A DNA stretch of 64,000 nucleotides from positions 671-64,670 of the forward strand of contig JANMNP010000073.1 of NCBI GenBank assembly GCA_031374105.1. Direction: 5' to 3'. The notes below the pieces were generated by a model. The model was not told the DNA's origin. It did not search any database and worked only from the letters and a program-made list of their open reading frames with translations. Source of the stretch: Novosphingobium sp. GTDB lineage: Bacteria; Pseudomonadota; Alphaproteobacteria; Sphingomonadales; Sphingomonadaceae. Numbering within the stretch: the stretch's first letter is position 1; the number at the start of each line of letters is the position of its first letter. Both the position numbers and the translations under genes were made by a program. Of the stretch, positions 39,715 to 58,687 are shown in pieces.

Positions 39715-39811
39715 TCATAAATTTAGCGTATGCTTCCTTAAATATTATAAACTGGACCGACAGACCCTCCAAGTTAGGGTCAGTGCCTATCTGGGGGTAA
39801 GGGGCGCTGCA

Positions 39812-42247: not shown

Positions 42248-42251
42248 GGCC

Positions 42252-44619: not shown

Positions 44620-45155
44620 GGCGGCTGGCGCTTGCGGTGCTGATGACGCTCAGCACCGCCTGCGCCGCGCCCACCGCGCCGCTATCGGCCAAGGCCAGTG
44701 ATGGCACGGTGATGCGCCGCACGACGCTGCTGGTGTTTGATATTGAACGCTCGATCCGGTTTTATGAGATCCTCGGTTTCACCCTGTGGCTCAATGGGCC
44801 GTGGGGGCAAACCCGGGCGGGCGGGCTGCCAGTTGAAGGGGTCAAGCCCGGCGATCCCAACCGGCTGGTGATCATGAAGGGCAAGCATTCCTATCTTGGC
44901 ATGATCGGCCTGCTCCAGCAGGGCCAAAGGCAAGACGCACCGCCCTTTGCGCTGCGCCGGGGCGATCCGATCCTGATGATTGAGATCGCCGATATGGCAG
45001 GCACCGCGCAAAAACTTGCCGCTGCAGGCTTTACGATCCACAAGCAGCCCGAAACCAGCCATATCAAGAGCGTTTCGGAAGAATGGGATGCCAAATTCAT
45101 GTTCGCCGTTGATCCTGATGGCCATATGCTTGAGCTGACCGAGCGGCTAAACTGA
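44616..45155 (+). CDS. exported VOC-family lipoprotein
   Basis: A lipobox-like signal (LMTLSTAC) is followed by the VOC pattern (RRTTLLVFDIERSIRFYEILGF ... VDPDGHMLEL). Confidence 0.75.
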   Translation: MRRLALAVLMTLSTACAAPTAPLSAKASDGTVMRRTTLLVFDIERSIRFYEILGFTLWLNGPWGQTRAGGLPVEGVKPGDPNRLVIMKGKHSYLGMIGLLQQGQRQDAPPFALRRGDPILMIEIADMAGTAQKLAAAGFTIHKQPETSHIKSVSEEWDAKFMFAVDPDGHMLELTERLN

Positions 45156-45157
45156 CC

Positions 45158-46045
45158 ATGCTGGACCGGCGCGGCCTGCTTCGCCTTGGCGGATTGGCTG
45201 CTGCTGGATGGGCCATCCCTGCATCGGCGCTGCCTGACCCTGCCATATCGGGCCTGCGCCGCGCCTATCTTTCCGGACCGTTCGGCCAGCTTCACATCAG
45301 GATTGCAGAGCCATTGCAGCGCCGCGGCAAGCGCTTGCCGCCGCTGCTGCTGTTCCACCAGACCCCGCTGTCGGGCCGGATGTTTGAAAGACTGCTGCCC
45401 CATCTTGCCGATGGACGGGTTGCAATCGCTGTCGATACTCCCGGTTATGGCGAGAGTGATCGCCCCGCTAGTCGGCCAACACTTGCTGGCTATGGCGATG
45501 CCATTCTTGCAGCGCTGGCCCCGGCTTATGGCAGGCGCTTTGATCTGCTTGGCTATCACACTGGCGCCGCGATCGCGGTTGATCTGGCCGCACGGCGACG
45601 CGAGGTGCGGCGGCTGGTGCTGGTTTCCATGCCATTATTCGGTGCCGCCCAGCGCGCGGCGCTGCTGGCCCAATTGAATGAGGGCAAAGAGCCCTTTGCC
45701 GCTGATGGCACGCATTTGCTGGGGCAATGGACTGGCAGTTACGGGGTAAAGGCGGCTGGTCAGAGTATCGATGACATCGCCCGGCTGGTTGCTGAAAAGC
45801 AGCGCGCAGGGCGGCATAATGAATGGGCGCTGCGTTCGGCGATGGAGCTGGACCTTGCCCCCCTGCTTGACCAGATTCGCCAGCCAGCGCTGGTGATCGC
45901 CCCCCATGACGGGCTGGAGGCGGGCAGCGGCGCGGCAGCAGTGAGGTTGCGGGCACGGCTGATCGACCGGCCCGACTGGCGCTATGGGCTGTTCGATGCT
46001 GCCCCGGCAGAGCTGGCGGCGTTGATCAATCCGTTCCTTGGGTGA
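45158..46045 (+). CDS. Tat-exported alpha/beta hydrolase
   Basis: A twin-arginine signal (MLDRRGLLRLGGLAAAGWAIPASA) is followed by the nucleophile-elbow context LLGYHTGAAIA. Confidence 0.85.
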   Translation: MLDRRGLLRLGGLAAAGWAIPASALPDPAISGLRRAYLSGPFGQLHIRIAEPLQRRGKRLPPLLLFHQTPLSGRMFERLLPHLADGRVAIAVDTPGYGESDRPASRPTLAGYGDAILAALAPAYGRRFDLLGYHTGAAIAVDLAARRREVRRLVLVSMPLFGAAQRAALLAQLNEGKEPFAADGTHLLGQWTGSYGVKAAGQSIDDIARLVAEKQRAGRHNEWALRSAMELDLAPLLDQIRQPALVIAPHDGLEAGSGAAAVRLRARLIDRPDWRYGLFDAAPAELAALINPFLG

Positions 46046-46163: not shown

Positions 46164-46179
46164 ATTTGTCCGGACAAAT
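46164..46179. promoter_or_regulatory. palindromic operator candidate ATTTGTCCGGACAAAT
   Basis: A perfect 16-bp palindrome lies 31 nt upstream of ATG 46210 and 18 nt downstream of a TTGACA hexamer (46140-46145). Its 18-nt core GAATTTGTCCGGACAAAT is identical to the site at 55185-55202. Confidence 0.6.
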
Positions 46180-46209: not shown

Positions 46210-47424
46210 ATGAATATCGACATTCCGCCGCCCTATTCTGCGCTGACCCGGCATCCTATGCTGGCGCGGGCCGATCATGACGAGGCGGCGCGGTTCAATT
46301 TCCTGACCCACCTTAACCGCTACTTGTCCGGTGCGGTCGGGGCGGGCAACCGGCTCGCTTATGAAACCCGCGTCTTGCCCGCTTTCCGTGCAGAACATGG
46401 CCGTGATCCGCAGCATCGCTATGAAGTCCGCGATGCGATGAACAGCGATCCGTGGCACCGGATGTGGTCGGCACTGAAGCGCAATTCGATGGAGATGCGC
46501 CAGCACAACGGCCGCCAGACGGTGCTGCGCCAGCTTGACGAGCTTGATGCTCAGGCCCGCCAGTTCAATGAACATTCGGGGATGCTGGAGCTTGATCCGG
46601 CGATTGCCCAGCCGTTCTATCAGACTGCGGTCGATATCCATTGCCAACCGGGCAGTTATCACAGCGAGGAACGCCCCGGCGATGTCTCGGCAGGGGCAAA
46701 TTATGATGTCGGCATCTTTGCGACCACCGGCGGCCAGCTTGGCGGCCTCAACGATGGCGGCGGGCAGGCGGTGGCTTCATGGGCGAGGGCTGACCGGCCT
46801 GATTGGCAGCCCCGGCGGATCCTAGATGTAGGGGCCACAGTAGGCCATAATGCGGTGCCGATTGCGCAGGCCTACCCCGATGCAGAGGTAATCGCGATCG
46901 ATACGGCCGGCGCATCGCTGCGCTATGGCGCGGCGCGGGCGGCGGGGCTGGGTGTTCGCAATATCCGCTTTGTTCAGGCCAATGGCGAGGATCTGTCGCG
47001 CTATCCCGATGGTCATTTCGATTGGGTCCAGACGACCATGTTCCTGCACGAGCTGTCGGGCAAGGCGATGCCAAAGCTGCTTGCCGAATGCCACCGGGTG
47101 CTCGCCCCCGGTGGGTTGATCCTGCATGTCGAACAGCCGCAATATGCGCCCGAAATGCCGTTGTTTGAGCAGTTCATGCGCGATTGGGATGCGTTCAACA
47201 ACAACGAGCCATTCTGGACCGCGATGCACGGCTTTGACCTGAAAGAGGTGATGGCAGGCGCCGGCTTTGCCAAGGACAGCCAATTCGTGATCGGCGTGCG
47301 CGCCGTAGTGGACCGGACGATCTTTCCCGATGCGCCATCGGGCGAGGAAGAGGATTATGGCCGCGCTGCGGTGTGGAATGCCTATGGGGCTTGGAAAGCG
47401 GTTGCGCGGGAGATGGCGGCATGA
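46210..47424 (+). CDS. class I SAM-dependent methyltransferase with a ~200-aa N-terminal extension (paralogue 1)
   Basis: The SAM motif I is ILDVGATVGHN, followed by VIAIDTAG, FDWVQTTMFLHEL and LAPGGLILHVE. The architecture and motifs are shared with 58684-59871. Confidence 0.85.
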   Translation: MNIDIPPPYSALTRHPMLARADHDEAARFNFLTHLNRYLSGAVGAGNRLAYETRVLPAFRAEHGRDPQHRYEVRDAMNSDPWHRMWSALKRNSMEMRQHNGRQTVLRQLDELDAQARQFNEHSGMLELDPAIAQPFYQTAVDIHCQPGSYHSEERPGDVSAGANYDVGIFATTGGQLGGLNDGGGQAVASWARADRPDWQPRRILDVGATVGHNAVPIAQAYPDAEVIAIDTAGASLRYGAARAAGLGVRNIRFVQANGEDLSRYPDGHFDWVQTTMFLHELSGKAMPKLLAECHRVLAPGGLILHVEQPQYAPEMPLFEQFMRDWDAFNNNEPFWTAMHGFDLKEVMAGAGFAKDSQFVIGVRAVVDRTIFPDAPSGEEEDYGRAAVWNAYGAWKAVAREMAA

Positions 47425-47780
47425 CCGAGGAACTTGACTGGATCGCCCGCGCCGGAACCCGCGCCAAGGGCCGTCGTCCGGAATATTTCGACGATCCAGC
47501 GACCGACCGGTTGCTGTCTCTGACCATGGCACTGGTGGCTGAGGTTTCGGTGCTGCGCGAGCGGCTCGATACGGTGGAGCGGCTGCTGGATGCCAAAGGC
47601 ACGATCAGCCGCGCCGATATCAGCGCCTATCAGCCCGGCCGCGATGCAGGCGAGGAGCGCGGCGTGGCAACGAAGGCCTTCGTTGCCCGGGTGATGCGCG
47701 GATTCCAGCAAGACGTGGAAGCGATGCAGAACCCCGATCCGCCGATCATGGATTGGGTTGACAAGCTGGCCCGCGAATAG
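47421..47780 (+). CDS. small conserved hypothetical protein coupled to the methyltransferase (paralogue 1)
   Basis: The start is at ATG 47421, with an ATGA overlap onto the methyltransferase stop. It shares the F.DP..DRL....M.L..EV.V..ER core with 59868-60116. Confidence 0.6.
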   Translation: MTEELDWIARAGTRAKGRRPEYFDDPATDRLLSLTMALVAEVSVLRERLDTVERLLDAKGTISRADISAYQPGRDAGEERGVATKAFVARVMRGFQQDVEAMQNPDPPIMDWVDKLARE

Positions 47781-47813
47781 CGCCGGGCAGGGAAAGTTCA
47801 GGGGAGAAGCTGG

Positions 47814-48491
47814 ATGTTTGAAGAAGTACTGGTGCTGCGCTGGTTCCACATTATCGCCATGGTCTATTGGCTGGGCGGCGAATGGGGGGTGTTCCAGACG
47901 AGCTACAATGTGGTCAACCGCAAGCTTTCGCTCGATGAACGGCGGCGGCATATGGAAACCGCCTATCGGATCGATATTCTGGCGCGAACCGGGATTATCC
48001 TGCTGCTGCCGCTGGGACTGCACATGGGCTTTATCTATGGATTGCAGCCCTATGGCGGCGGCTACCTGACAGTCATGTGGTTGGCGGTGGCGGCGTGGAT
48101 GGCGTTGTGCTGGGCCGCGTTCATCAAGCGGGAGAGCGACCTTGGCCTCAAACTGACCAAGCTTGACGAGCGCATCCGCTTCATCCTGATCCCGACGATC
48201 TTCGTGGTCGGCATATCCTCGCTGATGGGTAACGGCCCGTTCGAGGCGAGCGAAGGAACCCGCTGGTATGCCTGGAAGTTCACGCTTTATGGCTTTGCCT
48301 TGTGCATCGGGCTTGGCCTACGATTCATCATGCGGGCCTGGACCACGCGGTTCCGCCAGCTGGCCGAAGGGCCGAATCCTGCAGCCGAAGCCGCGCTGGA
48401 GCGTGAGATCGGCTATGGCCGGGCGATGGCCTATGTCTACTGGATCACCATTTCCGGGATCTGCTTCCTTGGCACAGTGAAGCCGATTTGA
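47814..48491 (+). CDS. integral membrane protein, unknown function (HemJ/CopD-like N-terminal motif by eye)
   Basis: About six TM segments. The N-terminal sequence LRWFHIIAMVYWLGGEWG recalls the H-I-I-A..W.GG motif of HemJ/CopD-type proteins. This is weak and from memory only. Confidence 0.65.
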   Translation: MFEEVLVLRWFHIIAMVYWLGGEWGVFQTSYNVVNRKLSLDERRRHMETAYRIDILARTGIILLLPLGLHMGFIYGLQPYGGGYLTVMWLAVAAWMALCWAAFIKRESDLGLKLTKLDERIRFILIPTIFVVGISSLMGNGPFEASEGTRWYAWKFTLYGFALCIGLGLRFIMRAWTTRFRQLAEGPNPAAEAALEREIGYGRAMAYVYWITISGICFLGTVKPI

Positions 48492-48626: not shown

Positions 48627-49205
48627 TCACTTCTGAATCTGGTTCATCTCGATCAGGATGCCATCGGGATCGAAGAAGTTGCAGCCCCGAACCCGGATCG
48701 GCGGACCGCCATTGCGCCCGGCATACTCCTGCATCCGCGCCTCGGCAGTAAAGGTCACCCCTGGGATTGATCTGGCCCGCTCGCAGCGGCCATCGACGTC
48801 ATCGGTGTTCATCACGATCACCACCCCGCCCGGCCCCATGCGCTTGGGATAAACGCCCGGATCGGCCAGCGGCGGCGTGGTCCATTCCATCAGCCCGACC
48901 CAGCCAACCCAGGGGTCATTGGCGTTTAGCAGCACCAGTCGCGCTTTGGCCCCCGGCAGTCCGGCGGGCAGCGCCACCCCGCTGGTTTCGACCACCGCAT
49001 CATAGTTGACCTTCATCCCCACCACATCGCGGTAGAGCTTCAGGCTGTTTTCCATGTTGCGGACGATCAGCGTGACCCGCCGGACATCGGTGGGCAGGCG
49101 CTCGGCCGGTGCGGTGACTCCTGGTGCTGCCGGGGCGGTGGACACGTTTTCGGCATTGGCGCAACTGCTCAGCAGCAGGGCGATCAGGGGAACGGCATTC
49201 TTCAT
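48627..49205 (-). CDS. exported VOC-family lipoprotein
   Basis: The lipobox is LIALLLSSC. The VOC pattern follows (RRVTLIVRNMENSLKLYRDVVGM ... FDPDGILIEM). This is the last gene of the minus-strand operon. Confidence 0.75.
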   Translation of the reverse strand: MKNAVPLIALLLSSCANAENVSTAPAAPGVTAPAERLPTDVRRVTLIVRNMENSLKLYRDVVGMKVNYDAVVETSGVALPAGLPGAKARLVLLNANDPWVGWVGLMEWTTPPLADPGVYPKRMGPGGVVIVMNTDDVDGRCERARSIPGVTFTAEARMQEYAGRNGGPPIRVRGCNFFDPDGILIEMNQIQK

Positions 49206-50383
49206 CGGCTTTCCTCCACAGCGCCACTGGCCAGCAGCGCATCAATTCTGGTCTCATCATAGCCAAGCCCCGCCAGCACGGCGCGGGCATCTGCGCCGGG
49301 CAGGGGCAGTCTGGTCGCTCCTCCGGGGCGTTTTCCGTCCATCTCCAGCGGGATGGTCGGCAGGCGTGTTTCGGTGCCATTGTCCAATGTCACTGGCTCC
49401 AGCCCCCCGGTGGCAAGGTGGGGATCTTCGAACAAATCCTCGGGCCGTCCGATCGGGGCAAACGGCATGCCGGTCCCGTCCAGTTTCGCGATCACCTCGG
49501 CGCGGGTCATCCCGGAGATCAGCGCGCGGATGGTGGGCAGGATCCGGTCCCGCGCCAGCACGCGCTGGTTGTTGGCGCGGATGGTTTCGTCTGCCCACAG
49601 GGCATCGAGCGCAAACATCGCGCAGAATTTCTCCCACAGCGCGTCGGTGACAACGCCGATGAACACCGGCTCGTCGCGGGTTTCAAACACGTCATAGATC
49701 GCCCATGCCGAAACCCGCGCGGGCATCGGCGCAGCGGGCTTCCCGGTCACCGCGAACTGCGCCATATGCTGGCCGACCAGATAGGCGGTGGTCTCAAACA
49801 GGCTGGCGACGATCTTCTGCCCAGCCCCTGTGCGGTGGCGCTCCTCCAGGGCGGCAAGAATCCCGATCACTCCAAACATTCCGCCAGCCACGTCAATCAC
49901 GCTTGCTCCCGCACGCAAAGGTTTGCCGGGCGGCCCGGTCATATAGGCCAGCCCGCCCATCATCTGCGCCACCTCGTCCAGCGCGGTGCGCTGTTCGTAT
50001 GGGCCAGGCAGAAAGCCCTTTTCGCTGGCATAGATCAGGCGTGGATTGGCGGCGGACAGCGCCTCATACCCCAGCCCCAGCCGATCGAGCGCGCCGGGGC
50101 GGAAATTCTCCACCACCACATCGGCCCGCGTGCAAAGCTCCTGCGCGATCGTCAGACCCGATGCGGATTTGAGGTTCAGACAGATCGATTGCTTGCCCCG
50201 GTTATACATCGGGAAATAGCCCGCGCCCGAACCCAGCAGCCGCCGGGTCTGATCGCCGCCGATCGGCTCAACCCGGATCACTTCGGCGCCAAGGCCTGTC
50301 AGAATATGACCCACTGTTGGCCCCATCACCATATGGGTAAACTCGATCACCTTGATCCCTGCAAGCGGTGTGGGACCAGTCAT
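49202..50383 (-). CDS. family III CoA-transferase (CaiB/BaiF)
   Basis: The motifs LAGIKVIEFTHMVMGPT, GAEVIRVEP..GD and VVVENFRPG are present, with the overall CaiB/BaiF pattern. Confidence 0.92.
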   Translation of the reverse strand: MTGPTPLAGIKVIEFTHMVMGPTVGHILTGLGAEVIRVEPIGGDQTRRLLGSGAGYFPMYNRGKQSICLNLKSASGLTIAQELCTRADVVVENFRPGALDRLGLGYEALSAANPRLIYASEKGFLPGPYEQRTALDEVAQMMGGLAYMTGPPGKPLRAGASVIDVAGGMFGVIGILAALEERHRTGAGQKIVASLFETTAYLVGQHMAQFAVTGKPAAPMPARVSAWAIYDVFETRDEPVFIGVVTDALWEKFCAMFALDALWADETIRANNQRVLARDRILPTIRALISGMTRAEVIAKLDGTGMPFAPIGRPEDLFEDPHLATGGLEPVTLDNGTETRLPTIPLEMDGKRPGGATRLPLPGADARAVLAGLGYDETRIDALLASGAVEESR

Positions 50384-51291
50384 CGTGCCAGCCTTTCGTG
50401 ATAGTCCAGCATCGGCCCGGCATCGGGGGTGAAGCCATACAGCGGCTCACCCGGCAGAGCCGCTTCCAGGATTTTGCGCACTTCCAGCAGCCGGTCCAGA
50501 TCAATCCCGGTTTCAAGCCCCATGGCATTGAGCATCAGCACCAGATCCTCGGTCACCAGATTGCCCGAAGCGCCCGGCGCATAGGGGCACCCGCCCAATC
50601 CGCCGAGCGAGGCATCAAGCGTGGTGATCCCCTCATTCAGCCCCGCCAGTGCATTAGCAAGGCCCAGGCCACGGGTGTTGTGGAGGTGCAGCGTGGTAAG
50701 CTTGTCTCCCACCGCGCCGCGCACCTTGCGGATCAGCCGTTTGACCTGCGCGGGATCGGCATAGCCGGTGGTGTCTGACAGGCTGAATTCCTGCGCCCCA
50801 GCCTCGGCAGCAGCAGCGGCAAGGCGCACCACTTGTTCCTCGCTTACTGCGCCCTCAATAGTGCAGCCAAAGGCGGTCGATAGCCCCACCGCGAAATGGA
50901 CCCCTGCGGCTGCTGCGATCTGCGCCACCGCCGCGATCTCGGCCAGCATCGCGGGATGGTCCATCCGGACATTGCGCAGCGAGTGGGTTTCGCTCATCGA
51001 AAAGGGAATGCTCATTCCGTGAACTCCTGCCTTCACCGCCCGCGCCGCGCCTTTGGCATTGGGAACCAGCGCCACGACGTTAAGTCCGGGAATCTCCCGC
51101 GCAAAGGCGACCAGTTCGGGCGTGTCGGCCATCTGCGGCAACAGGCTGGCCGGCACGAAGCTGCCCACCTCAATCTCCGGCACGCCCGCCGCAGCCTCTG
51201 CCGCGATCCACGCTTTCTTGGCCTCCAGCGGCATCACCCGGCTGATCGATTGCAACCCGTCACGCGGGCCGACTTCGGAAATGAGGATCAT
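50380..51291 (-). CDS. hydroxymethylglutaryl-CoA lyase-like (DRE-TIM metallolyase)
   Basis: The motifs EVGPRDGLQ, LHLHNTRGLGLANALAG and GGLGGCPYAPGASGN are HMGL-like signatures. The start ATG overlaps the stop of the upstream chimeric ORF (ATGA). Confidence 0.92.
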   Translation of the reverse strand: MILISEVGPRDGLQSISRVMPLEAKKAWIAAEAAAGVPEIEVGSFVPASLLPQMADTPELVAFAREIPGLNVVALVPNAKGAARAVKAGVHGMSIPFSMSETHSLRNVRMDHPAMLAEIAAVAQIAAAAGVHFAVGLSTAFGCTIEGAVSEEQVVRLAAAAAEAGAQEFSLSDTTGYADPAQVKRLIRKVRGAVGDKLTTLHLHNTRGLGLANALAGLNEGITTLDASLGGLGGCPYAPGASGNLVTEDLVLMLNAMGLETGIDLDRLLEVRKILEAALPGEPLYGFTPDAGPMLDYHERLAR

Positions 51292-51674
51292 AGTTCCTCT
51301 CCAATCACGGATTGGGGAGGGGGACCGTCCGAAGGACGGTGGTGGGGTATGCGGCTGCTCGCCGCAGCAACGATCCGCTCCACTACACTTTCCATATTCC
51401 TCATCACGTCAGTCGCCCCAATCCGCAAAGTCGCGACACCAGCCTTGGCCATGAACGCATCGCGTGCCAGATCGTGCGCGGGATTATCACCCATATCATG
51501 CGCAATTCCATCAACCTCAATGCAAAGTCTGGCGGCTGCGCAGTAGAAGTCGAGCACGAATCGGTCTGCCGGATGCTGCCGACGGAATTTCAGTCCGCCC
51601 GGCCGTTTTCGCAGTTCGGTCCATAGCATCGCCTCGGGCATCGACATTGATCGGCGGAGTGACCGGGCGCGCAT
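51288..51674 (-). CDS. DUF559 (Vsr/restriction-endonuclease-like fold) protein, internal ATG at 51674
   Basis: 128 aa. MPEAMLWTELRKRPGGLKFRRQHPADRFVLDFYCAAARLCIEVDGIAHD...D..RDAFMAKAGVATLRI matches the DUF559 pattern as I remember it. The C-terminal PHHRPSDGPPPQSVIGEEL is a translation of the element arm. Confidence 0.8.
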   Translation of the reverse strand: MRARSLRRSMSMPEAMLWTELRKRPGGLKFRRQHPADRFVLDFYCAAARLCIEVDGIAHDMGDNPAHDLARDAFMAKAGVATLRIGATDVMRNMESVVERIVAAASSRIPHHRPSDGPPPQSVIGEEL

Positions 51675-52355
51675 TACGGAAGAGTTGGTGCGGGGGGGGA
51701 GGCGGGATACCCCTCCACCGCTCTTCGAGCGGTCCCCCTCCCCAGCCTGCGGCTGGGGAGGATTGAGATATACCCATGGTCGCAGCTGCCTGTCTGCTGC
51801 GGTCCATACGGCGATGGCTTGGCCGGATTTGAGGGTCAGGTCGATCACATCCAGCCCTTCGAGCAGCATGGCTTTCGCCTCTGCGTCCAGGGTAAAGTGA
51901 TAGGCTTCAGCACCGGCGCGCACCTCTTGCGCGGCAAGATCGACGGTGACGATCTGCCACTGCATCGCTGCAATCGCAGCGCGCGGCAGTTCAACAGGCA
52001 ACAACCCGTTGCGAATGCAATTGGCGCGAAAGATTGGGGCGAAGCTCTCCGCGACGATGCAGGTGATGCCATATTCCCTGAGCGCCCAGACCGCGTGTTC
52101 ACGGCTCGATCCGCAGCCGAAATTTGCCCCGCCCAGCAACAGGCTGGCACCCGCGGCATCGCGCTGGTTGAGCGCAAAGGCGGGGTCGGCGATCCGCTGA
52201 TCGGCATTGCTGTAGCGCCATGGAGCGAACAGACCGTCCGCCAGCCCAGTCCTCCCGGTGGAGCGCATTTCGCGGCTGGGGATGATCGTGTCGGTATCGA
52301 TGTTGTCGAGCAACAGCGGCACCGCGACTGAGGTGAGGGTGGTGAAGGGGGTCAT
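51288..52355 (-). CDS. LeuD-like aconitase-family small subunit (homology 51765-52355) whose frame runs on without a stop through the inserted element to 51288
   Basis: The first 197 aa carry the LeuD pattern (DNIDTDTIIP, GANFGCGSSREHAVWAL, GITCIVAESFAPIF..N). After ...RPWVYL the frame continues into the arm translation (NPPQPQAGEGDRSKSGGG) and the DUF559 ORF, giving 355 codons in total. Confidence 0.8.
   Translation of the reverse strand: MTPFTTLTSVAVPLLLDNIDTDTIIPSREMRSTGRTGLADGLFAPWRYSNADQRIADPAFALNQRDAAGASLLLGGANFGCGSSREHAVWALREYGITCIVAESFAPIFRANCIRNGLLPVELPRAAIAAMQWQIVTVDLAAQEVRAGAEAYHFTLDAEAKAMLLEGLDVIDLTLKSGQAIAVWTAADRQLRPWVYLNPPQPQAGEGDRSKSGGGVSRLPPRTNSSVMRARSLRRSMSMPEAMLWTELRKRPGGLKFRRQHPADRFVLDFYCAAARLCIEVDGIAHDMGDNPAHDLARDAFMAKAGVATLRIGATDVMRNMESVVERIVAAASSRIPHHRPSDGPPPQSVIGEEL
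51295..51762. mobile_element. full-length inverted-arm element carrying a DUF559/Vsr-like endonuclease ORF (~468 bp)
   Basis: The outer ends are TCCTCTCC (51295-51302) and GGGGAGGA (51755-51762). One arm is GGGGAGGGGGACCGTCCGAAGGACGGTGGTGGGG (51314-51347). The other arm is CCCCTCCACCGCTCTTCGAGCGGTCCCCCTCCCC (51710-51743). The DUF559-like ORF lies between the arms. Confidence 0.7.
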
Positions 52356-53719
52356 GCCGATGCCACCTTGCGCGGATCGGCGATGCAGCCTGCCAGCGCG
52401 CTGGCGGCGACGGTTTCGGGGCTAGCGATATGCGTGCGGATGCCGGGGCCCTGGCGGCCTTCGAAATTACGGTTGGTGCTGCTGATCGTGCGGCTGCCCG
52501 GCGCGAACCCTTCGCCGCCAGCATAGAAGCATAGCGAGCAGCCGCTCATCCGCCATTCGAATCCGGCGGCGATGAATATCTGGTCCAGCCCTTCGGCCTC
52601 AGCCGCGCGCTTTACCGCAGAGCTGCCGGGGACGACCAGCGCCTTGGTTATCCCCGGCGCAATACGGCGGCCTTTGAGGATCGCGGCGGCGCGGCGCAAA
52701 TCGGACAAGCGGCTATTGGTGCAGCTGCCAATAAAGGCGGCGTCAATGGGCGTTCCGGCAATGCGCTGGCCTGCCTCCAGGGCGATATAGTCATGCGCGC
52801 GCTGCGGCCCTTGCGGGATCCGGGCATCGACTGCGATACTCTGTTCGGGGCTGGTTCCCCAGCTGACCATCGGCGCGACGCTTGCGGCATCGATGGTGAT
52901 CTCACGATCAAACACCGCATCTGCATTGCTGTGCAGGCTGGCCCAATAGGGCGCGTCGAAACGGGCGGGTGCATAGCGCCGCCCAGCCAGATAGGCGAAG
53001 GCCTTAGCATCTGGCGCGATGATCGCCGTCATCGCCGAAAATTCGGTCGCCATGTTGCACAAGCTCATCCGCGCTTCCATGTCGAGCGCGCTGACAGCAT
53101 CTCCGGCAAATTCCACCACATGCCCAGCGCCGCCGCCCGCGCCGTGGCGGGCGATCAGCGTCAGCGCCATGTCCTTTGCGGTAACTCCGCTGGCTAGCGT
53201 TCCGGTAAAACTCACCCGCATGGTCTGCGGCCGCGCCAGCCGCAGCGTGCCGGTGGCCATGGCGTGTTCGGCCTCGCTCGAACCGATCCCCCAGGCCAGC
53301 GCGCCAAACGCTCCTTGAGTGCAGGTGTGACTATCGGGCGCAACTAGGGTGAGCCCCGGCAGCACGATGCCAAGTTCCGGCGAGATCACATGGACAATGC
53401 CCTGATCGCGGTCATTCACATCAAACAGCGTCAGCCCGGCGGCCTGCGCTGCGGAGCGGGTTTCGGTGATGAAGGCCTGCCCGCCCGCCATCAGCGTCTG
53501 ATCACCTCTTCCAGTACGGGTGTCGACAATATGATCCATCACCGCAAACACCCGCGCGGGATCGATCACTGGGCGGCCCGCTGCCGACATGCTATTCAAC
53601 GCTGCGGCCCCAGTGCGCTCATGCAGGAACACCCGGTCAATCGCGATCAGGCTTATCCCCGCTGCCGGATCGGCAACGCGATGGCTTTCCCAGATCTTGT
53701 CAAACAGCGTCTTCGCCAT
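52352..53719 (-). CDS. LeuC-like aconitase-family large subunit (divergent paralogue, probably not the leucine-pathway enzyme)
   Basis: The motifs MAKTLFDKIWESH, DSHTCTQGAFGALAWGIGSSE, GSCTNSRLSDLR and STNRNFEGRQG are present. Canonical LeuC motifs are altered: HEVTSPQAF becomes HERTGAAAL, and CLGMNPD becomes CFYAGGE. Confidence 0.88.
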   Translation of the reverse strand: MAKTLFDKIWESHRVADPAAGISLIAIDRVFLHERTGAAALNSMSAAGRPVIDPARVFAVMDHIVDTRTGRGDQTLMAGGQAFITETRSAAQAAGLTLFDVNDRDQGIVHVISPELGIVLPGLTLVAPDSHTCTQGAFGALAWGIGSSEAEHAMATGTLRLARPQTMRVSFTGTLASGVTAKDMALTLIARHGAGGGAGHVVEFAGDAVSALDMEARMSLCNMATEFSAMTAIIAPDAKAFAYLAGRRYAPARFDAPYWASLHSNADAVFDREITIDAASVAPMVSWGTSPEQSIAVDARIPQGPQRAHDYIALEAGQRIAGTPIDAAFIGSCTNSRLSDLRRAAAILKGRRIAPGITKALVVPGSSAVKRAAEAEGLDQIFIAAGFEWRMSGCSLCFYAGGEGFAPGSRTISSTNRNFEGRQGPGIRTHIASPETVAASALAGCIADPRKVASA

Positions 53720-53801
53720 TGGGCTGCCCTATCTTGCTAGCCTGCGCCAGTCGCGCGCAACCAGCATTTCGAGAAGTGCCGTTCGGATTGCAGCCAGGCC
53801 A

Positions 53802-55184
53802 TCATGGATCGACAAAACTCTCTCCATCAGCTTTGGTCAGTGCTTGCGCAAAAGCAAGTGCAGAGCGCGCCTGAAGCAAGGCGAGATGTTCAAGGGCGAG
53901 GCGATCGGGGGCAAGGGCTGCTGGATCGAAGTTGCGCGCATTGCTAGGGCCAGCAGCATACCACGGCTCGAAGAAATGCCGGGCACGGACGATTGCCCAT
54001 GCCTTGGTCAAATGACTGCCGAAGCGATCAGGCGTGAAACTTGGGAACAATTGGCCCGGATCGCCCTGCGGCGCATTTTCATGGTGCACGGCGATGAAGC
54101 CGCGCTGGCTGCAGGCCGCTTCGAACACATCGCGCCAGGGTTGCCATTCGGTTGGCGCTGCGCCTTGCCAGTTATCGGAAAGCCCGTGCCCCGGCGGATC
54201 AAACGCAGCGCCATTAATCAGCGCGGCAGAGCGCCCCGGCGCGGGAATGGTCACCGCAGTCGCGCTATCGCGGCCATGCCAATGGATCAGGCCGTCGAAC
54301 TGATCGGTCTGGATATGCATGAAGCCCTGATCCGGGTCTTCGGAAAGCGGCGCGCAGGGATCGGATTCCAGGCTGCGCAAGAACGACAGGCTCTCAGCCA
54401 GATGCTCTGCTGGTGTCGCCACTTTGAAGGCCAACCAGTTCGCCGGCATCGCGCCCAAACGGTCTATATGCGCCTGAAGTGGATCGGAATCATAGGCAGT
54501 TATCAAGACTGGCGGCGTGATGCTATCGGGGGGCGGCACATCGCGCGGCGCCTGCAGCACCGCAGCATAGCCCAGCCGGAAGGAATCCCCCGCATCGAGG
54601 ATTTCCATCATGATATCCTGAACCCGCGCCGGATCATCATGCGCAGATGTCAGCCGGGTTTCGGGCCGGGTGTCATACCAAGGGAAGAACCAGCTTTGCT
54701 CCAGAATCCGGTTCCAGCCCCAGATCAGATGCTCGCCATAGGGCAGGGGCAGGAACGGCGGGGTATAGTTTTCGCCAAAGGCCTTGCTCTCGGCTTCGGT
54801 CCAGACGGCATAGCCGCCGGCCGCAATCCCGGTGAACAGCGCCGGATGGCGTTTCAGCGCAGTAATCAGAATGATCGCGCCCGAATGGAAGCCATAGGCA
54901 GGCACACGATCAAGCCCCACCGCAGACACAAATTCCGCCAAGGCATCGGCATAGTCATTGATGTCAGGAGTGGCCTTGGCAAGCGGCTGAGATTGGCCGA
55001 AGCCGGGGGTATCGGGCGCGATGCAAGTGAAATGCGCGCCCCATTGCTGCATCAGCTCTTGATACTCAGCCGAAGAGCGCGGGCTTTGGTGCACCATCAG
55101 CAGTGGCGGACCTTTGCCCGCTCTGCGATAATGGACGCGGCGGCCATTGATCGTCAGATAGTGACGTGAGACGGTAATAGGCAT
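53802..55184 (-). CDS. alpha/beta-hydrolase-fold protein with an extra ~190-aa C-terminal domain
   Basis: The start is at ATG 55184 (MPITVSRHYLTINGRRVHYRRAGKGPPLLMVHQSPRSS...DTPGFGQS). The nucleophile-elbow context is AYGFHSGAI. The C-terminal half has no recognised family. Confidence 0.8.
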   Translation of the reverse strand: MPITVSRHYLTINGRRVHYRRAGKGPPLLMVHQSPRSSAEYQELMQQWGAHFTCIAPDTPGFGQSQPLAKATPDINDYADALAEFVSAVGLDRVPAYGFHSGAIILITALKRHPALFTGIAAGGYAVWTEAESKAFGENYTPPFLPLPYGEHLIWGWNRILEQSWFFPWYDTRPETRLTSAHDDPARVQDIMMEILDAGDSFRLGYAAVLQAPRDVPPPDSITPPVLITAYDSDPLQAHIDRLGAMPANWLAFKVATPAEHLAESLSFLRSLESDPCAPLSEDPDQGFMHIQTDQFDGLIHWHGRDSATAVTIPAPGRSAALINGAAFDPPGHGLSDNWQGAAPTEWQPWRDVFEAACSQRGFIAVHHENAPQGDPGQLFPSFTPDRFGSHLTKAWAIVRARHFFEPWYAAGPSNARNFDPAALAPDRLALEHLALLQARSALAFAQALTKADGESFVDP

Positions 55185-55185
55185 G

Positions 55186-55203
55186 AATTTGTCCGGACAA
55201 ATT
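55186..55203. promoter_or_regulatory. palindromic operator candidate AATTTGTCCGGACAAATT
   Basis: A perfect 18-bp palindrome sits in the 78-bp gap between divergent genes. It lies 2 nt from the ATG of the 55184 gene and 60 nt from ATG 55263. The core is identical to the site at 46164-46179. Confidence 0.6.
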
Positions 55204-55262: not shown

Positions 55263-55943
55263 ATGCATTTGCTCGGCACGCGGATGGTCAGCGATGGGAA
55301 GACCGCCCGGCAGATCTTTGACGCGGTGATGGCCAATCCGGCGCGCAAGAAGTTTGGCTTCGGGCAGAAGCTGGCGGTGGTGAATGTCGATTTCCAGCAG
55401 GCCTATACCGCGATCGACAAATTTGCGACCGCCTATGAAACTGACCCGCGCCAGATCGAATATGTAAATACTATCAGTGCCTTGGCGCGGAGCCACGGCA
55501 TGCCGGTGATCTGGACACGGGTGGCCTATAAGGGCGATGCGGGAGACGCCGGGATCTGGGGCACCCGCACCAATACGCCCGACAGCTTGCAGAACATCAA
55601 ATATGACAGCGAGCGGCACCAGTATGATCCGCGGGTCGAAATAGGCGTGGATGATCTGCAATATACCAAGCGGATGCCATCGGCCTTTTTTGAAACCCAG
55701 CTAGCCAGCTACCTCAATTGGCACAAGGTCGATACGGTGGTGGTGACCGGTGGTTCTACCTCTGGCTGCGTCCGCGCCACTGCGGTTGATTCGCTCAGCC
55801 ACGGCTATCGCACCATAGTCCCGATCGAAACCTGCGCTGACAAGCATGAGAGCTATCACTTCGCCAATCTGACCGATCTTCAGCTGAAATATGCCGACGT
55901 TGAGCCTGTTCAGGCGGTAATCGATTGGTTCGCTGCGCGATGA
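55263..55943 (+). CDS. isochorismatase-family cysteine hydrolase (amidase-like)
   Basis: The context of the D/K/C triad is VVNVDFQ, KRMPSAFF and VVVTGGSTSGCVRATAVD. An alternative start lies at 55284. Confidence 0.88.
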   Translation: MHLLGTRMVSDGKTARQIFDAVMANPARKKFGFGQKLAVVNVDFQQAYTAIDKFATAYETDPRQIEYVNTISALARSHGMPVIWTRVAYKGDAGDAGIWGTRTNTPDSLQNIKYDSERHQYDPRVEIGVDDLQYTKRMPSAFFETQLASYLNWHKVDTVVVTGGSTSGCVRATAVDSLSHGYRTIVPIETCADKHESYHFANLTDLQLKYADVEPVQAVIDWFAAR

Positions 55944-56821
55944 ACGAAGGCGCACCCGACCCGGGCCTTTATGATTACGTCCCCTATCGCGGACGCCCGA
56001 AAATAACCTGGCCGGGCGGCAAAACCGTGGCAGTGTGGGTTGCTCCCAATCTTGAGTTTTACGAGATTGATCCGCCCGCCCATCCCAGCCGCAAGGCTTG
56101 GGCCCGTCCGCATCCCGATGTTGTCGGATATGGCCACCGTGACCACTCCAACCGCGTCTCGCACTGGCGGATGGCCGATGTTATGTTGAGGCATGGCTTC
56201 CCCGGCTCAGTCAGCCTGTCGGTCGCACTGTGTCAGCACCACCCGGAAGTCGTCGCCGATGCCAATGCGCGCGGCTGGGAGTTTTTCAGCCACGGCATTT
56301 ACAACACCCGCTATGCTTATGGGATGGATGAGGCCCAGGAGCGCGCGATAATCGCGGATTCTATCCGCACCGTGCGCGAGGCCACCGGGCAGACGATCCG
56401 CGGCTGGCTCGCCCCCGCGCTGACCCATACCCCGCGCACGCTTGATCTGATTGCCGAGGCCGGCCTCGATTACACCTGCGATCTTTATCACGACGATCAG
56501 GTGCAGGATGTCAAAGTCGCCAGCAGACGGCTCGCCTCAATCCCCTATAGCCTTGAGGTCAATGATCATTACGGCTTCTTCGTCTATAATATGTCGGGCC
56601 GCGAATATGCCGATACGCTGGTTCGGCAGTATGAGCGGCTGGCGGCTGAGGGCGAAAATTCCGGCACGGTCATGTGTATTCCGCTCCATGCCTATCTGAT
56701 CGGCCAGCCGCACCGGATCGGCCCGTTTGAAGAGGCGCTGCGCCATATTGCCGCCGATGGCCGGGCATGGATTGCGCGGGCCGGAGAAATTGTTGACGCC
56801 TGGCGGGGGCAAACGGCATGA
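55940..56821 (+). CDS. polysaccharide-deacetylase-fold protein, PuuE/allantoinase-like (paralogue 1)
   Basis: The motifs YVPYRGRPKITWPGGKTVAVWVAPNLEFYE, YGHRDHSNRVSHWRM and IPLHAYLIGQPHRIGPFEEAL follow the PuuE-type pattern from memory. An ATGA overlap couples it to the previous gene. Confidence 0.85.
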   Translation: MNEGAPDPGLYDYVPYRGRPKITWPGGKTVAVWVAPNLEFYEIDPPAHPSRKAWARPHPDVVGYGHRDHSNRVSHWRMADVMLRHGFPGSVSLSVALCQHHPEVVADANARGWEFFSHGIYNTRYAYGMDEAQERAIIADSIRTVREATGQTIRGWLAPALTHTPRTLDLIAEAGLDYTCDLYHDDQVQDVKVASRRLASIPYSLEVNDHYGFFVYNMSGREYADTLVRQYERLAAEGENSGTVMCIPLHAYLIGQPHRIGPFEEALRHIAADGRAWIARAGEIVDAWRGQTA

Positions 56822-57726
56822 GCCTCGATCCCGCCTATCTTGAATATCCAAACCGCCGCCTTGGCTATGACCATGATCTTTACCCCTGGTCCGCGCTGCA
56901 TCAGCGCCCGCCGATCACCTGGCCCAAGGGTTCGGTCGCGGTATGGGTCTGCGTCAGCCTTGAATGGTTCCCGATCACGCCGTCGGACACCCCGTTCCGC
57001 GCGCCGGGCCATATGCAGACCGCCTATCCCGATTATCGCCATTACACCGCGCGCGATTATGGCAACCGGGTGGGAGCGTGGCGGATGCTTGATGCGCTGG
57101 ACAAGATTGGCGCGCGCGCCAGCTTTGCGACCAATGCGGCAGTGGCGGAGCGCTATCCCGAACTGGTCCGAGCGCTGGCCGGGCATGAGATCATTGCCCA
57201 TTCCACCGACATGAACGGCACGATCGACAGTTCATTGACCGAGGCCGAGGAGCGGGCCTTGATCGGCGATGCACTGGACCGGCTGGAAGCGGCCAGCGGC
57301 GTTCGACCAGAGGGCTGGCTTTCCATCGCCCGCTCGCAAAGTTTCCGCACGGCAGACCTGCTCAAGGAACATGGCATTGTCTGGTGCGCTGACTGGGTCA
57401 ATGACGAGCTGCCCTATCGCTTCAGCAACGGCCTGATCAACTGTCCGCTCAATCACGAGCTGTCCGACCGGCAGATTATCGCGGTGCAGCAGCAATCGGC
57501 GGATAGCTGGGCGCAGAGCTTGGAGGATGCGTTTAATTGGCTGGTGGGCGAAGCAGCAGCAACCGGCGGCGGGCGGATGCTGCCGATCCATGTCACGCCC
57601 TATATCATGGGCCTGCCCTATCGGATCGGCGCCTTCGAACGGCTGCTCGAAAGATTGGCGGCCCGGCAGGAATGCTGGTTCGCCAGCGGCGGCGAGATCG
57701 TTTCCAGCTGGCAATCGCAAGCATGA
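56818..57726 (+). CDS. polysaccharide-deacetylase-fold protein, PuuE/allantoinase-like (paralogue 2)
   Basis: The motifs ITWPKGSVAVWVCVSLEWF, YTARDYGNRVGAWRM and IHVTPYIMGLPYRIGAFERLL are collinear with the preceding gene. Confidence 0.85.
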   Translation: MSLDPAYLEYPNRRLGYDHDLYPWSALHQRPPITWPKGSVAVWVCVSLEWFPITPSDTPFRAPGHMQTAYPDYRHYTARDYGNRVGAWRMLDALDKIGARASFATNAAVAERYPELVRALAGHEIIAHSTDMNGTIDSSLTEAEERALIGDALDRLEAASGVRPEGWLSIARSQSFRTADLLKEHGIVWCADWVNDELPYRFSNGLINCPLNHELSDRQIIAVQQQSADSWAQSLEDAFNWLVGEAAATGGGRMLPIHVTPYIMGLPYRIGAFERLLERLAARQECWFASGGEIVSSWQSQA

Positions 57727-58178
57727 GCAACCGCGCCCAACTTGCCGTAGTCATGCCTGCCATGCTGCGCCACGAAGGCCATTGGGACGGCTGGTATCGT
57801 CACTTTGACGCAGGCGGCGCGCTGCTTGATGCCCACCGGGTCAAAACCTGGTGCGAGTTTCCCGATCAGGGTGAGTGGCACTATATCCAGCACAATTGGC
57901 TGGAGTGGGACGACGGGCGCAAGGCGACATATGAATTTGGCGGCAAGCTGGAGGGCGACAGGCTGGTCTGGGAAACGGACCGCTTCGCCGGATATGGCTG
58001 GCAAACTGCCGAGGATGTGGTGATGCTCAAGCTGGACCGGCTTGATGTGCGGGACGCCTATTATATCGAGATGATCGCGCTTGCCGCCGATGGCCAAACC
58101 CGCGCGCGGACCTGGCAGTGGTTTCAGGATGGGCGGCCGTGGAAATGGACGCTTTGTAACGAGGAGAAAGCGCAGTGA
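57723..58178 (+). CDS. hypothetical protein (151 aa)
   Basis: The start is at ATG 57723, with an ATGA overlap. The protein is Trp-rich (HEGHWDGWYRHFDAGG...WHYIQHNWLEWDDG...). No family was recognised. Confidence 0.6.
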   Translation: MSNRAQLAVVMPAMLRHEGHWDGWYRHFDAGGALLDAHRVKTWCEFPDQGEWHYIQHNWLEWDDGRKATYEFGGKLEGDRLVWETDRFAGYGWQTAEDVVMLKLDRLDVRDAYYIEMIALAADGQTRARTWQWFQDGRPWKWTLCNEEKAQ

Positions 58179-58687
58179 TCTTGGCTGGTCTGTTGATGCT
58201 GGCGCAAGCTGTCGATCCGGCGGCAACGGCAGTCAAGCCGCTAGCCGTCGCGCGCGCTGCCGCGCCGCTGTCGGGCACCTGCGATCAACCAGTGATCATG
58301 GTCATTTCCGGCCACACGCATGATCGGGTGCGGATGATGGCTTATGGCAAGGCGATTGCCGATAGCGGGCTCTACAACCAGCTTGGCGGCTATTATGTGA
58401 ACCTGGCATTCCCGCAGGAGATCTTTGAAGGCGCCGCGCCCGCAGGTTACGTCAATCTGATTGTCCGGTTCCCTTGCATGGCCAATGCCAAAGCGTTCTG
58501 GAACAGCAAGACTTATCAGGAGCAGATCAGACCGCTGCGTCTCAGCCCGTCGGCTGGCGATTACATTGTTGCGGTCTACCCCGAGGCACCGTTGCGAGAA
58601 GACCTTGTCGGAAGCGTCGGTGATGATAGTTATAACGCTGACTTCCCGCATCAGGGTGTCGCGCAGATTGATGGAGCCAAGCCATGA
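58175..58687 (+). CDS. DUF1330-like protein with N-terminal signal-like segment
   Basis: The sequence VNLIVRFPCMANAKAFWNSKTYQEQIRPLR recalls the DUF1330 dimeric alpha-beta-barrel pattern from memory. There is a GTGA overlap with the previous gene. Confidence 0.65.
   Translation: MILAGLLMLAQAVDPAATAVKPLAVARAAAPLSGTCDQPVIMVISGHTHDRVRMMAYGKAIADSGLYNQLGGYYVNLAFPQEIFEGAAPAGYVNLIVRFPCMANAKAFWNSKTYQEQIRPLRLSPSAGDYIVAVYPEAPLREDLVGSVGDDSYNADFPHQGVAQIDGAKP

Follow-up and report, generated by a model that had tools for sequence, protein, structure and literature searches.

Six genes on the minus strand of Novosphingobium sp. contig JANMNP010000073.1 (assembly GCA_031374105.1), at positions 48627-55184 of the 64,000-nucleotide stretch analysed here (the window), form an operon organized around a paralogue of LeuCD, the two-subunit 3-isopropylmalate dehydratase (EC 4.2.1.33). 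With a probability of about 0.6, this pair (51771-53719) is best read as a bacterial LeuCD that has been recruited to catabolism, serving a route in which a cyclic imide or amide would be converted to an alkylmaleate (probably of the citraconate type), then to an (R)-2-alkylmalate and its coenzyme A (CoA) ester, and finally to acetyl-CoA and a 2-oxoacid. Sequence comparison establishes the paralogy of the pair, the integrity of its catalytic residues, its conserved linkage to neighbouring genes and an operator that it shares with other operons.

A LeuCD paralogue distinct from the leucine enzyme

The window is part of a 2.6-Mb assembly (96% complete) that contains a genuine LeuC on contig C87 (TIGR00170, 747.9 bits, cut-off 560.25), with a 201-aa LeuD encoded after it. 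A leuB gene is present on contig C41 and a leuA-like gene on contig C1; neither leuA nor leuB was found on the contig of the window, and no LeuB-family dehydrogenase is encoded in the cluster. The LeuC of the window scores 495.5 bits on TIGR00170, the leuC equivalog model, below its cut-off, and passes two LeuC subfamily models (NF009116, 626 bits). Its LeuD partner passes TIGR00171 (166 bits, cut-off 116) and scores 213 bits on NF002458. Archaeal and DmdB-type models fit poorly (TIGR02086, 270 bits, cut-off 410; TIGR02087, 86 bits, cut-off 109). Identity to the genuine pair of the same genome is 46% for LeuC and 37% for LeuD.

The divergence is concentrated in recognizable motifs. Where the genuine LeuC reads HEVTSPQAF and CLGMNPD, the paralogue reads HERTGAAAL and CFYAGGE, and THG is changed to TQG. 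In a tree of 57 full-length matches, drawn from a search of 1.84 billion representatives, together with the genuine LeuC, the window protein falls in a four-member clade (Shimodaira-Hasegawa-like approximate likelihood ratio test, SH-aLRT, 96) in which all members carry HERTG and CF[FY]AGGE. This clade is nested in a 17-member group of non-canonical LeuC-like proteins (SH-aLRT 95), and the genuine LeuC lies in the canonical HEVTSPQAF / CL[AG]MNxD clade (SH-aLRT 97). Comparison of 82 paralogues with 15 canonical sequences identified clade-invariant substitutions, among them R35 for V, G37 for S, Q135 for H, G401 for N and E403 for D. His33 aligns with Gln72 of pig aconitase, and Arg35 with Ala74.

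Mapping onto aconitase (1NIS) and M. jannaschii LeuC (4KP1) showed that LeuC retains a counterpart of each of aconitase D100/H101, D165/S166/H167, N258/E262, the three Cys ligands, N446/R447 and R452; the GSSREH catalytic loop is intact in LeuD. Since the catalytic and Fe-S residues are kept while the signature positions differ, the pair looks catalytically competent, with a changed substrate pocket. An initial annotation of this DNA, made from the sequence alone, had placed the LeuCD paralogue outside leucine biosynthesis, with no leuA or leuB nearby. That view is supported by the second leuCD on C87, the sub-cut-off equivalog score, the position outside the canonical clade in a tree of library representatives and the conserved linkage described below, and leuA and leuB indeed map to other contigs. 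The motifs that it quoted (DSHTCTQGAFGALAWG, GSCTNSR and STNRNFEGRQG, besides the two altered signatures) are all present in the LeuC-like translation.

Conserved module, divergent operon and shared operator

Related loci in which LeuC is 70-94% identical to that of the window number 80, from Novosphingobium, Erythrobacter, Sphingopyxis, Sphingomonas, Sphingobium, Qipengyuania and one Steroidobacter. LeuD, an HMG-CoA (3-hydroxy-3-methylglutaryl-CoA) lyase-family enzyme and a family III CoA-transferase directly follow the paralogue in 71 of the 72 loci with enough sequence. An alpha/beta hydrolase gene is immediately upstream of LeuC in 58 of 66 loci, and an isochorismatase-family amidase gene and two PuuE-like genes are divergent from the paralogue in 60 of 66. 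A metagenomic locus (L088, 63% identical) holds the same gene set in a different order, with the alpha/beta hydrolase absent. One of its arms encodes an MFS protein, a DUF4440-like protein, two deacetylase-fold proteins, the isochorismatase and the lyase, the other the transferase, LeuC, LeuD and an FAD_binding_2 dehydrogenase, and a GntR/UTRA regulator gene lies between them. The association of the pair with the lyase and transferase genes and with the amidase operon thus survives rearrangement, and the gene set is taken to represent one pathway.

The distribution of the module is patchy. When one genome per genus of the family was sampled, the paralogue was present in 13 of 61 genomes, and the one other genome of the same genus in the sample lacks it. 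Novosphingobium sp. AP12 and three loci like it have no amidase operon; upstream of the module, AP12 instead encodes a S-adenosylmethionine (SAM) methyltransferase of the family found in the window, together with an FAD_binding_2 dehydrogenase, a Zn-dehydrogenase and an FAD-linked oxidase. The FAD_binding_2 dehydrogenase that adjoins the module in loci L051 and L088 is TcuA-like. TcuA makes cis-aconitate from tricarballylate, and a dehydrogenase of this kind beside the module fits a cis-alkene intermediate.

A lone LeuC with the HERTG and CFFAGGE signatures was observed at a separate locus (L090:8001-9386, GCA_030054035.1; tree row P0015), on a long tree branch and between ribonucleotide reductase and lipopolysaccharide-transport genes. 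As no LeuD, lyase or transferase gene occurs near it, the HERTG signature alone is no guarantee of the module.

Within the window, open reading frame (ORF) analysis and Pfam and NCBIfam profile searches resolved the six genes listed in Table 1. ATGA overlaps mark all four junctions from LeuC onward, and the genes from LeuC to the terminal VOC gene are predicted to be translationally coupled; 82 nt separate the hydrolase from LeuC. Scans for promoter and terminator consensus sequences inside the operon gave no more hits than chance would (1 where 1.8 were expected, and 4 where 4.5 were expected). The hydrolase carries an extra C-terminal region of about 160 aa and obtained weak generic NCBIfam matches only. 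The N-terminus of the VOC protein is a lipoprotein signal peptide ending in LSSC, so this protein is predicted to be exported and to act outside the cytoplasm. It is peripheral to the module, with many relatives having no VOC gene and Sphingomonas/Sphingobium-type loci lacking it. The set of families in the initial annotation (LeuCD, HMG-CoA-lyase-like, family III CoA-transferase, hydrolase and VOC) was recovered in full at 48627-55184, as was an isochorismatase-family gene heading the divergent operon, with the maleamate amidohydrolase NicF (3UAO) among its solved relatives. That inventory had missed the lipoprotein signal of the VOC protein and a DUF559 fusion that extends the LeuD ORF to 355 aa.

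The lyase scores 264.2 bits on NF004283 against a cut-off of 246, this being an HMG-CoA-lyase subfamily model rather than an equivalog, which leaves the substrate unfixed. Its motifs EVGPRDGLQ, HLHNTRG and GLGGCPYAPGASGN align with those of the solved HMG-CoA lyases 6NDS, 1YDO and 2CW6, and it keeps the catalytic Arg-Asp, the His-x-His and the Cys loop. The only other HMGL-domain proteins of the genome are the LeuA-sized one on C1 and a lyase on contig C50. The transferase is best matched in NCBIfam by succinate-glutarate, formyl-CoA and mesaconate transferases, reaching no equivalog, and its solved relatives include succinate-hydroxymethylglutarate CoA-transferase (9BR6). NCBIfam holds no equivalog model for a citramalate transferase or a citramalyl-CoA lyase. 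With a family III transferase adjoining, through an ATGA overlap, a lyase of intact catalytic motifs, the lyase is proposed as a candidate (R)-2-alkylmalyl-CoA (citramalyl-CoA-type) lyase and the transferase as a candidate activator of hydroxy-dicarboxylates.

A cluster of the same logic, without LeuCD, was noted on C50 (27400-37500; L091:5427-15468). It encodes a GntR(FCD) regulator, an HMG-CoA-lyase-like protein 40% identical to the lyase of the window, hydantoinase/oxoprolinase A and B, a family III CoA-transferase, an isochorismatase paralogue, a transketolase/E1-like protein and a divergent TonB-dependent receptor.

In the window, the divergent operon on the plus strand comprises, in order, genes for the isochorismatase-family amidase, two PuuE-like paralogues (PDA1 and PDA2), a 151-aa protein, a DUF1330 protein and a 395-aa SAM methyltransferase. 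Solved relatives of the first include N-carbamoylsarcosine amidase (E 2e-27), 4L07/4L08 (E ~1e-27), which are structures of a maleamate amidase, and 3OT4/3UAO (3UAO E 4e-20). 3UAO is NicF (PMC5806882), and the protein is proposed to be a candidate half-amide (maleamate-type) amidase. The best solved relatives of PDA1 and PDA2 are PuuE allantoinase 3CL6 and 3S6O (E 1e-14 to 1e-25). The latter is 91% identical to the imidase BpIH, and PuuE-type proteins show cyclic-imide hydrolase activity (PMC11424739). Of the PuuE Glu-His-Trp triad, the motif His is kept in PDA1 and PDA2, no Trp is found four residues on, and the N-terminal Glu region could be aligned with 3RXZ only. The two proteins are proposed as candidate ring-opening hydrolases of cyclic amides or imides.

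The remaining proteins of the cluster are less readily assigned. Pfam and NCBIfam gave no match for the 151-aa protein, for a 225-aa membrane protein or for a 280-aa protein of an operon on contig C34. The nearest Foldseek matches of the 151-aa protein, a predicted beta-barrel, are BFA1, DUF3598, Ycf58, the CpeS bilin lyase and nitrobindin. A paralogue of this barrel protein is encoded between the hydrolase and LeuC in most relatives (e.g. L022:7446-7880 and L103:7737-8135), with one or two copies per cluster. SAM methyltransferases of about 400 aa, with a 200-aa N-terminal half that matches no family, are encoded at 46210-47424 and 58684-59871 of the window, at C53:15254-16288 and at L051:2203-3447, and the last of these shows that the family accompanies the LeuCD module also in loci without the amidase operon. 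Trans-aconitate methyltransferase offers a possible analogy. The ESM Atlas returned generic names only for the methyltransferase and the hydrolase.

A perfect palindrome in the divergent promoter is a candidate operator and occupies the same position in most of the 80 related loci. Allowing at most one mismatch, its 14-bp core occurs five times in the 2.6-Mb assembly: twice in the window, twice on contig C53 (before a DUF1838 gene and before a TonB-dependent receptor gene) and once before the operon on C34. That operon comprises genes for a Ccl/RipC-like lyase, an Ich/RipB-like hydratase, an acyl-CoA dehydrogenase, two family III CoA-transferases, a protein without a named family and two MmgE/PrpD-family proteins. 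Both key enzymes score below the equivalog cut-offs (RipB/Ich, 222 against 340 bits; RipC/Ccl, 223 against 375 bits) and, as judged from these scores, are homologous to Ich and Ccl but not demonstrably equivalent to them. The operator is likewise upstream of the Ccl-like gene in five of the eight other genera that have one, and seven of the nine sampled genomes with a Ccl-like gene also carry the paralogue, counts given without a statistical test because related genomes are not independent. The LeuCD and Ccl clusters lie 13-19 kb apart on one contig in three genomes. In genome G025 they form a single co-directional array of hydrolase, barrel protein, LeuC, LeuD, lyase, transferase, Ccl, Ich, dehydrogenase, two transferases, the family-less protein and PrpD.

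Two further gene groups were noted around copies or relatives of these genes. On C53 (27500-41900; L085:5515-19868), a third PuuE-like paralogue, a phosphoenolpyruvate mutase/isocitrate-lyase-family protein and an aldehyde dehydrogenase, a homologue of which occurs in the amidase operon of G025, are followed by the operator and the DUF1838 gene, then by two TonB-dependent receptors, one of them behind an operator copy, and by an MFS protein, an FAD-linked oxidase and a CN-hydrolase. Positions 39671-46045 of the window encode a TonB-dependent receptor, cytochrome b561, two DUF1838 paralogues, an exported VOC protein and an alpha/beta hydrolase. Since the shared operator precedes a third DUF1838 gene, that on C53, these envelope genes may be part of the same regulon. 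Typing of the TonB-dependent receptors of the regulon gave generic sub-threshold matches only.

The LeuD ORF of the window contains a DUF559 cassette read in frame at its 3' end. In a cassette-free relative (L005, 94% identical), LeuD ends in WVYLEKHA and its TGA overlaps the ATG of the lyase. Alignment with L005 shows that, in the window, an inverted-arm cassette of some 470 bp takes the place of the last 13 nt of leuD, and that the fused ORF stops on the same ATGA. Both fusion junctions are bridged by contigs from four freshwater-sediment metagenome runs of two studies, which rules out an assembly artefact. In-frame LeuD-DUF559 fusions occur at the same point in three other species (L006:9374-10430, L010:4495-5540 and L074:9344-10400), while the closer relatives L005 and L007 have no cassette; the fused ORF always reaches the start of the lyase gene. 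This recurrence points either to a mobile DUF559 cassette that has inserted repeatedly at a specific site or to selection for the maintenance of translational coupling. Eight more DUF559 copies are present elsewhere in the genome. In all four metagenome runs, other contigs join position 51347 to 51710 and omit 362 nt of the DUF559 ORF, with matching sides of 21-34 nt. Such short-sided joints probably stem from related organisms or from cassette arms present in further copies, and may represent miniature copies.

Table 1. Coordinates of the LeuCD operon, the divergent operon and the candidate operators in the window.
Feature	Position	Strand	Details
VOC/glyoxalase-fold protein	48627-49205	-	Last gene of operon; PF00903
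Family III (CaiB/BaiF) CoA-transferase	49202-50383	-	393 aa; PF02515, 343 bits
HMG-CoA-lyase-family (DRE-TIM) acyl-CoA lyase	50380-51291	-	303 aa; PF00682, 156 bits
DUF559 cassette (Vsr-like endonuclease fold)	51295-51762	-	PF04480, 90 bits; residues 228-330 of LeuD ORF
LeuD-like small subunit domain	51771-52355	-	Residues 1-195 of 355-aa ORF 51288-52355; PF00694
LeuC-like large subunit, aconitase-family Fe-S hydro-lyase	52352-53719	-	455 aa; PF00330, 474 bits
Alpha/beta hydrolase	53802-55184	-	First gene of operon; 460 aa from ATG; PF00561, PF12146 and PF12697 over residues ~25-250
Candidate operator	55186-55203		Perfect 18-bp palindrome, core TTTGTCCGGACAAA; in divergent promoter, abuts hydrolase start codon
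Second operator copy	46164-46179		Before operon 46210-48491 (404-aa SAM methyltransferase, small protein, membrane protein)
Isochorismatase-family cysteine amidohydrolase	55263-55943	+	PF00857, 95 bits; Asp-Lys-Cys triad present
PDA1, PuuE-like polysaccharide-deacetylase-fold hydrolase	55925-56821	+	PF01522; TIGR03212 far below cut-off
PDA2, PuuE-like polysaccharide-deacetylase-fold hydrolase	56818-57726	+	PF01522; TIGR03212 far below cut-off
Trp-rich protein, ten-stranded calycin/fatty-acid-binding-protein-like beta-barrel	57723-58178	+	151 aa; AlphaFold2 predicted local distance difference test score 97

Proposed route and competing explanations

Enzymes of the aconitase family hydrate a cis-ene-dicarboxylate and require that the carbon bearing the hydroxyl also carries a carboxylate; the product of the LeuCD paralogue should therefore be a 2-hydroxysuccinate derivative. 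In the route proposed here, the pair would act as an oxygen-sensitive [4Fe-4S] hydro-lyase that hydrates an acid of the cis-butenedioate (maleate) type, most likely with a methyl branch, to an (R)-2-alkylmalate, for example citraconate to (R)-citramalate. The family III transferase would then move CoA, probably from succinyl-CoA, to the carboxyl group beta to the hydroxyl. CoA on this far carboxyl group yields a 3-hydroxy-3-carboxyacyl-CoA, the type of substrate cleaved by DRE-TIM lyases, and the HMG-CoA-lyase-family enzyme would split it into acetyl-CoA (or another acyl-CoA) and a 2-oxoacid, which from citraconate would be pyruvate. The unsaturated acid would be supplied at least partly by the divergent operon, in which the PuuE-like pair would open the ring of an imide or amide, leaving the last amide nitrogen to be removed by the isochorismatase-type amidase. 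One palindromic operator would switch the LeuCD module, the amidase operon and the itaconate/methylsuccinate-like operon through repressor-type control, and the whole regulon would serve the isomeric forms of small dicarboxylic acids with branched chains, together with the corresponding amides. Citraconate, the cis isomer, is the most economical guess for the substrate, because the partner operon would take the trans and exo-methylene C5 isomers via (S)-citramalyl-CoA. Maleate or dialkylmaleates are possible substrates, and every substrate, flux direction and stereochemistry in this scheme is inferred.

Individual steps have precedents. Known reactions include those of (R)-citramalyl-CoA lyase (EC 4.1.3.46) and succinyl-CoA:(R)-citramalate CoA-transferase (EC 2.8.3.20), and maleate hydratase activity is known in a LeuC-type enzyme (PMC8307300). 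The outline suggested by the initial annotation, from an amide through a diacid, a hydroxy acid and a CoA ester to cleavage, is strengthened by the NicF relative 3UAO (PMC5806882) and by the imidase precedent among PuuE-type proteins (PMC11424739), and still has the standing of an inference. The parallel that it drew with nicotinate degradation is less well supported in other respects: the cluster contains no nicotinate ring-cleavage enzymes, and the alpha/beta hydrolase likened to NicD matches generic hydrolase models only and is absent from the rearranged cluster L088. All enzyme families of the scheme are known, but no paper was found that describes this gene set, the combination or the proposed route, nor one that gives a genetic basis for a citraconate route with late CoA activation.

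Several observations weigh against this reading. The lyase appears to be an ordinary HMG-CoA-lyase-family sequence, with nothing specific to citramalyl-CoA, and the transferase reaches no equivalog, its solved relatives acting on glutarate/HMG, oxalate and formate. The invariant Arg35, two residues past the equivalent of aconitase Gln72, could mean that the substrate bears an extra carboxylate rather than a small methyl group. The LeuD of this genome bears a 160-aa C-terminal fusion that may affect its function. The Ich/Ccl-like operon is present in only seven of the 13 sampled paralogue carriers, and is thus linked but separable. Finally, the hydrolase, the methyltransferases, the DUF1330 and DUF1838 proteins, the barrel protein and the exported VOC protein have no step in the scheme.

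Among the alternatives, an unbranched route, the one nearest to the nicotinate parallel of the initial annotation, is unlikely, in which an N-heterocycle would be degraded to maleamate and maleate, LeuCD would form D-malate in place of maleate isomerase, and D-malyl-CoA would be cleaved to glyoxylate and acetyl-CoA. It would account for the match of the isochorismatase to NicF (3UAO) and 4L07/4L08 (E ~1e-27), for the Arg in the alkyl pocket (R35 for V), which fits a smaller substrate, and for the maleate hydratase activity of a LeuC-type enzyme (PMC8307300). However, N-carbamoylsarcosine amidase matches the isochorismatase as well as maleamate amidases do, the co-regulated and sometimes fused operon is built of enzymes for methyl-branched C5 acids, and no pyridine-ring hydroxylase, 2,5-dihydroxypyridine dioxygenase or formamidase family is encoded in or beside the cluster. 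Pfam and NCBIfam searches likewise matched no cluster gene to a ring-cleaving dioxygenase, a deformylase or a maleate isomerase.

By the same mechanism, the substrates could be maleimides derived from tetrapyrroles (haem, bilins and chlorophylls), such as hematinic acid and methylvinyl- or methylethylmaleimide, with the barrel proteins carrying pyrrolic intermediates; this is improbable, at perhaps one chance in ten. Release of the ring nitrogen would fall to the PuuE-like proteins and the amidase, LeuCD would act like dimethylmaleate hydratase in hydrating the 2-methyl-3-R-maleate, and the lyase would yield pyruvate and a longer acyl-CoA for the co-regulated acyl-CoA dehydrogenase operon, a sequence of steps to which an equally low probability is given. 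The chemistry is apt, as each pyrrole ring is a 3-methyl-4-R unit whose imide hydrolyses to 2-methyl-3-R-maleate, and such maleimides are established abiotic and photo-oxidative degradation products (PMC10343206; PMC11833878). The nearest folds of the predicted barrel model include the CpeS bilin lyase and the haem-binding nitrobindin, although calycin barrels bind many ligands and the top folds, BFA1 and DUF3598, have no known tetrapyrrole role. The invariant Arg35 in the pocket could bind a propionate side chain. TonB-dependent receptors, cytochrome b561 and exported proteins in the regulon suggest uptake of something larger than a C5 acid, but the receptors matched generic models only. Carriers come from freshwater and marine settings. 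The idea further requires that an HMG-CoA-lyase-family site tolerate an acyl-CoA product substituted at the alpha position. Neither a haem oxygenase nor a bilin reductase was seen among the genes of the cluster, and no paper on bacterial maleimide catabolism was found for comparison.

A true HMG module, in which a succinyl-CoA:3-hydroxy-3-methylglutarate CoA-transferase and HMG-CoA lyase form acetoacetate and acetyl-CoA while LeuCD serves another step, is very improbable. The lyase passes the HMG-CoA-lyase subfamily model (264 against 246) with all catalytic motifs, and the relatives of the transferase include 9BR6, but the linkage of LeuCD, lyase and transferase in 71 of 72 loci would be left unexplained, and no genes of leucine catabolism or ketogenesis occur nearby, the rest of the genome not having been searched for liu genes. 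Formation of HMG from 3-methylglutaconate by LeuCD was ruled out by the aconitase mechanism, as HMG has no carboxylate on its hydroxyl-bearing carbon.

Least credible is a spare LeuCD for leucine, or for isoleucine via citramalate with the lyase and transferase running in reverse from pyruvate and acetyl-CoA: LeuD does pass the leuD equivalog-domain cut-off and LeuC a LeuC subfamily model, but an anabolic role is disfavoured because leuA, leuB, leuC and leuD are already complete elsewhere with no LeuB-family dehydrogenase in the cluster, the distribution is patchy (13 of 61 sampled genera, absent from the other sampled congener) and a repressor-type operator is common to the amidases and the catabolic CoA-ester operon, the LeuC signature motifs being changed besides.

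If the proposed catabolic route is correct, it would constitute a 'CoA-late' pathway for branched dicarboxylic acids with a cis double bond, citraconate being an example. Citraconate, itaconate and mesaconate currently attract attention both as metabolites with antimicrobial and immunomodulatory effects and as building blocks for polymers. The module, the amidase/imidase operon and the itaconate-like operon under one operator would make up a concrete regulon, and the pair would be a clean case of an amino-acid biosynthetic Fe-S enzyme taken into catabolism via a few invariant active-site changes. Under automatic annotation these genes would receive the names 3-isopropylmalate dehydratase and HMG-CoA lyase, which almost certainly misstate their role.

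Comparison with known systems

The pair shares with LeuCD (EC 4.2.1.33) its two-subunit architecture, its bacterial subfamily, the Fe-S ligands and the catalytic residues. It differs in its changed signature motifs and in being part of an operator-controlled operon without leuA or leuB. HbzIJ and DmdAB, of the gentisate and nicotinate pathways, are two-subunit aconitase-family hydratases of cis-butenedioates that act in catabolism, as is proposed here. DmdAB is followed by a direct isocitrate-lyase-family lyase rather than by CoA activation. Named as precedents by the initial annotation, HbzIJ and DmdAB are precedents for the chemistry only: taking NCBIfam scores as a proxy for a tree, the window pair is of the bacterial LeuCD type (626 and 213 bits) and not of the archaeal/DmdB type (270 and 86 bits).

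The (R)-citramalate branch of Chloroflexus aurantiacus, compared by reaction and family rather than by sequence, contains the same pair of reactions, namely CoA transfer onto a 2-hydroxy-2-alkylsuccinate followed by cleavage into pyruvate and acetyl-CoA. Chloroflexus Ccl is an HMGL-family enzyme, and the Chloroflexus transferase Sct belongs to family III. In contrast to the window, no LeuCD-type hydratase precedes the pair there, and no amidase operon lies beside it.

Cyclic-imide catabolism and the NicD-NicF steps resemble the proposed supply route in that a ring-opening hydrolase and then an amidase yield a dicarboxylate (PMC11424739; PMC5806882). In the window, however, the PuuE Trp is not kept, and the product would be passed to a LeuCD-type hydratase and CoA chemistry. 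A gene cluster of Pseudomonas and Cupriavidus degrades itaconate, mesaconate, (S)-citramalate and both enantiomers of methylsuccinate, and the C34 operon holds the same families (Ict, Ich, Ccl, dehydrogenase and MmgE/PrpD; PMC9875883; PMC12290011). The C34 operon differs from it in having two transferases and two PrpD-family proteins, and in its link to the LeuCD/HMGL module and the amidase operon.

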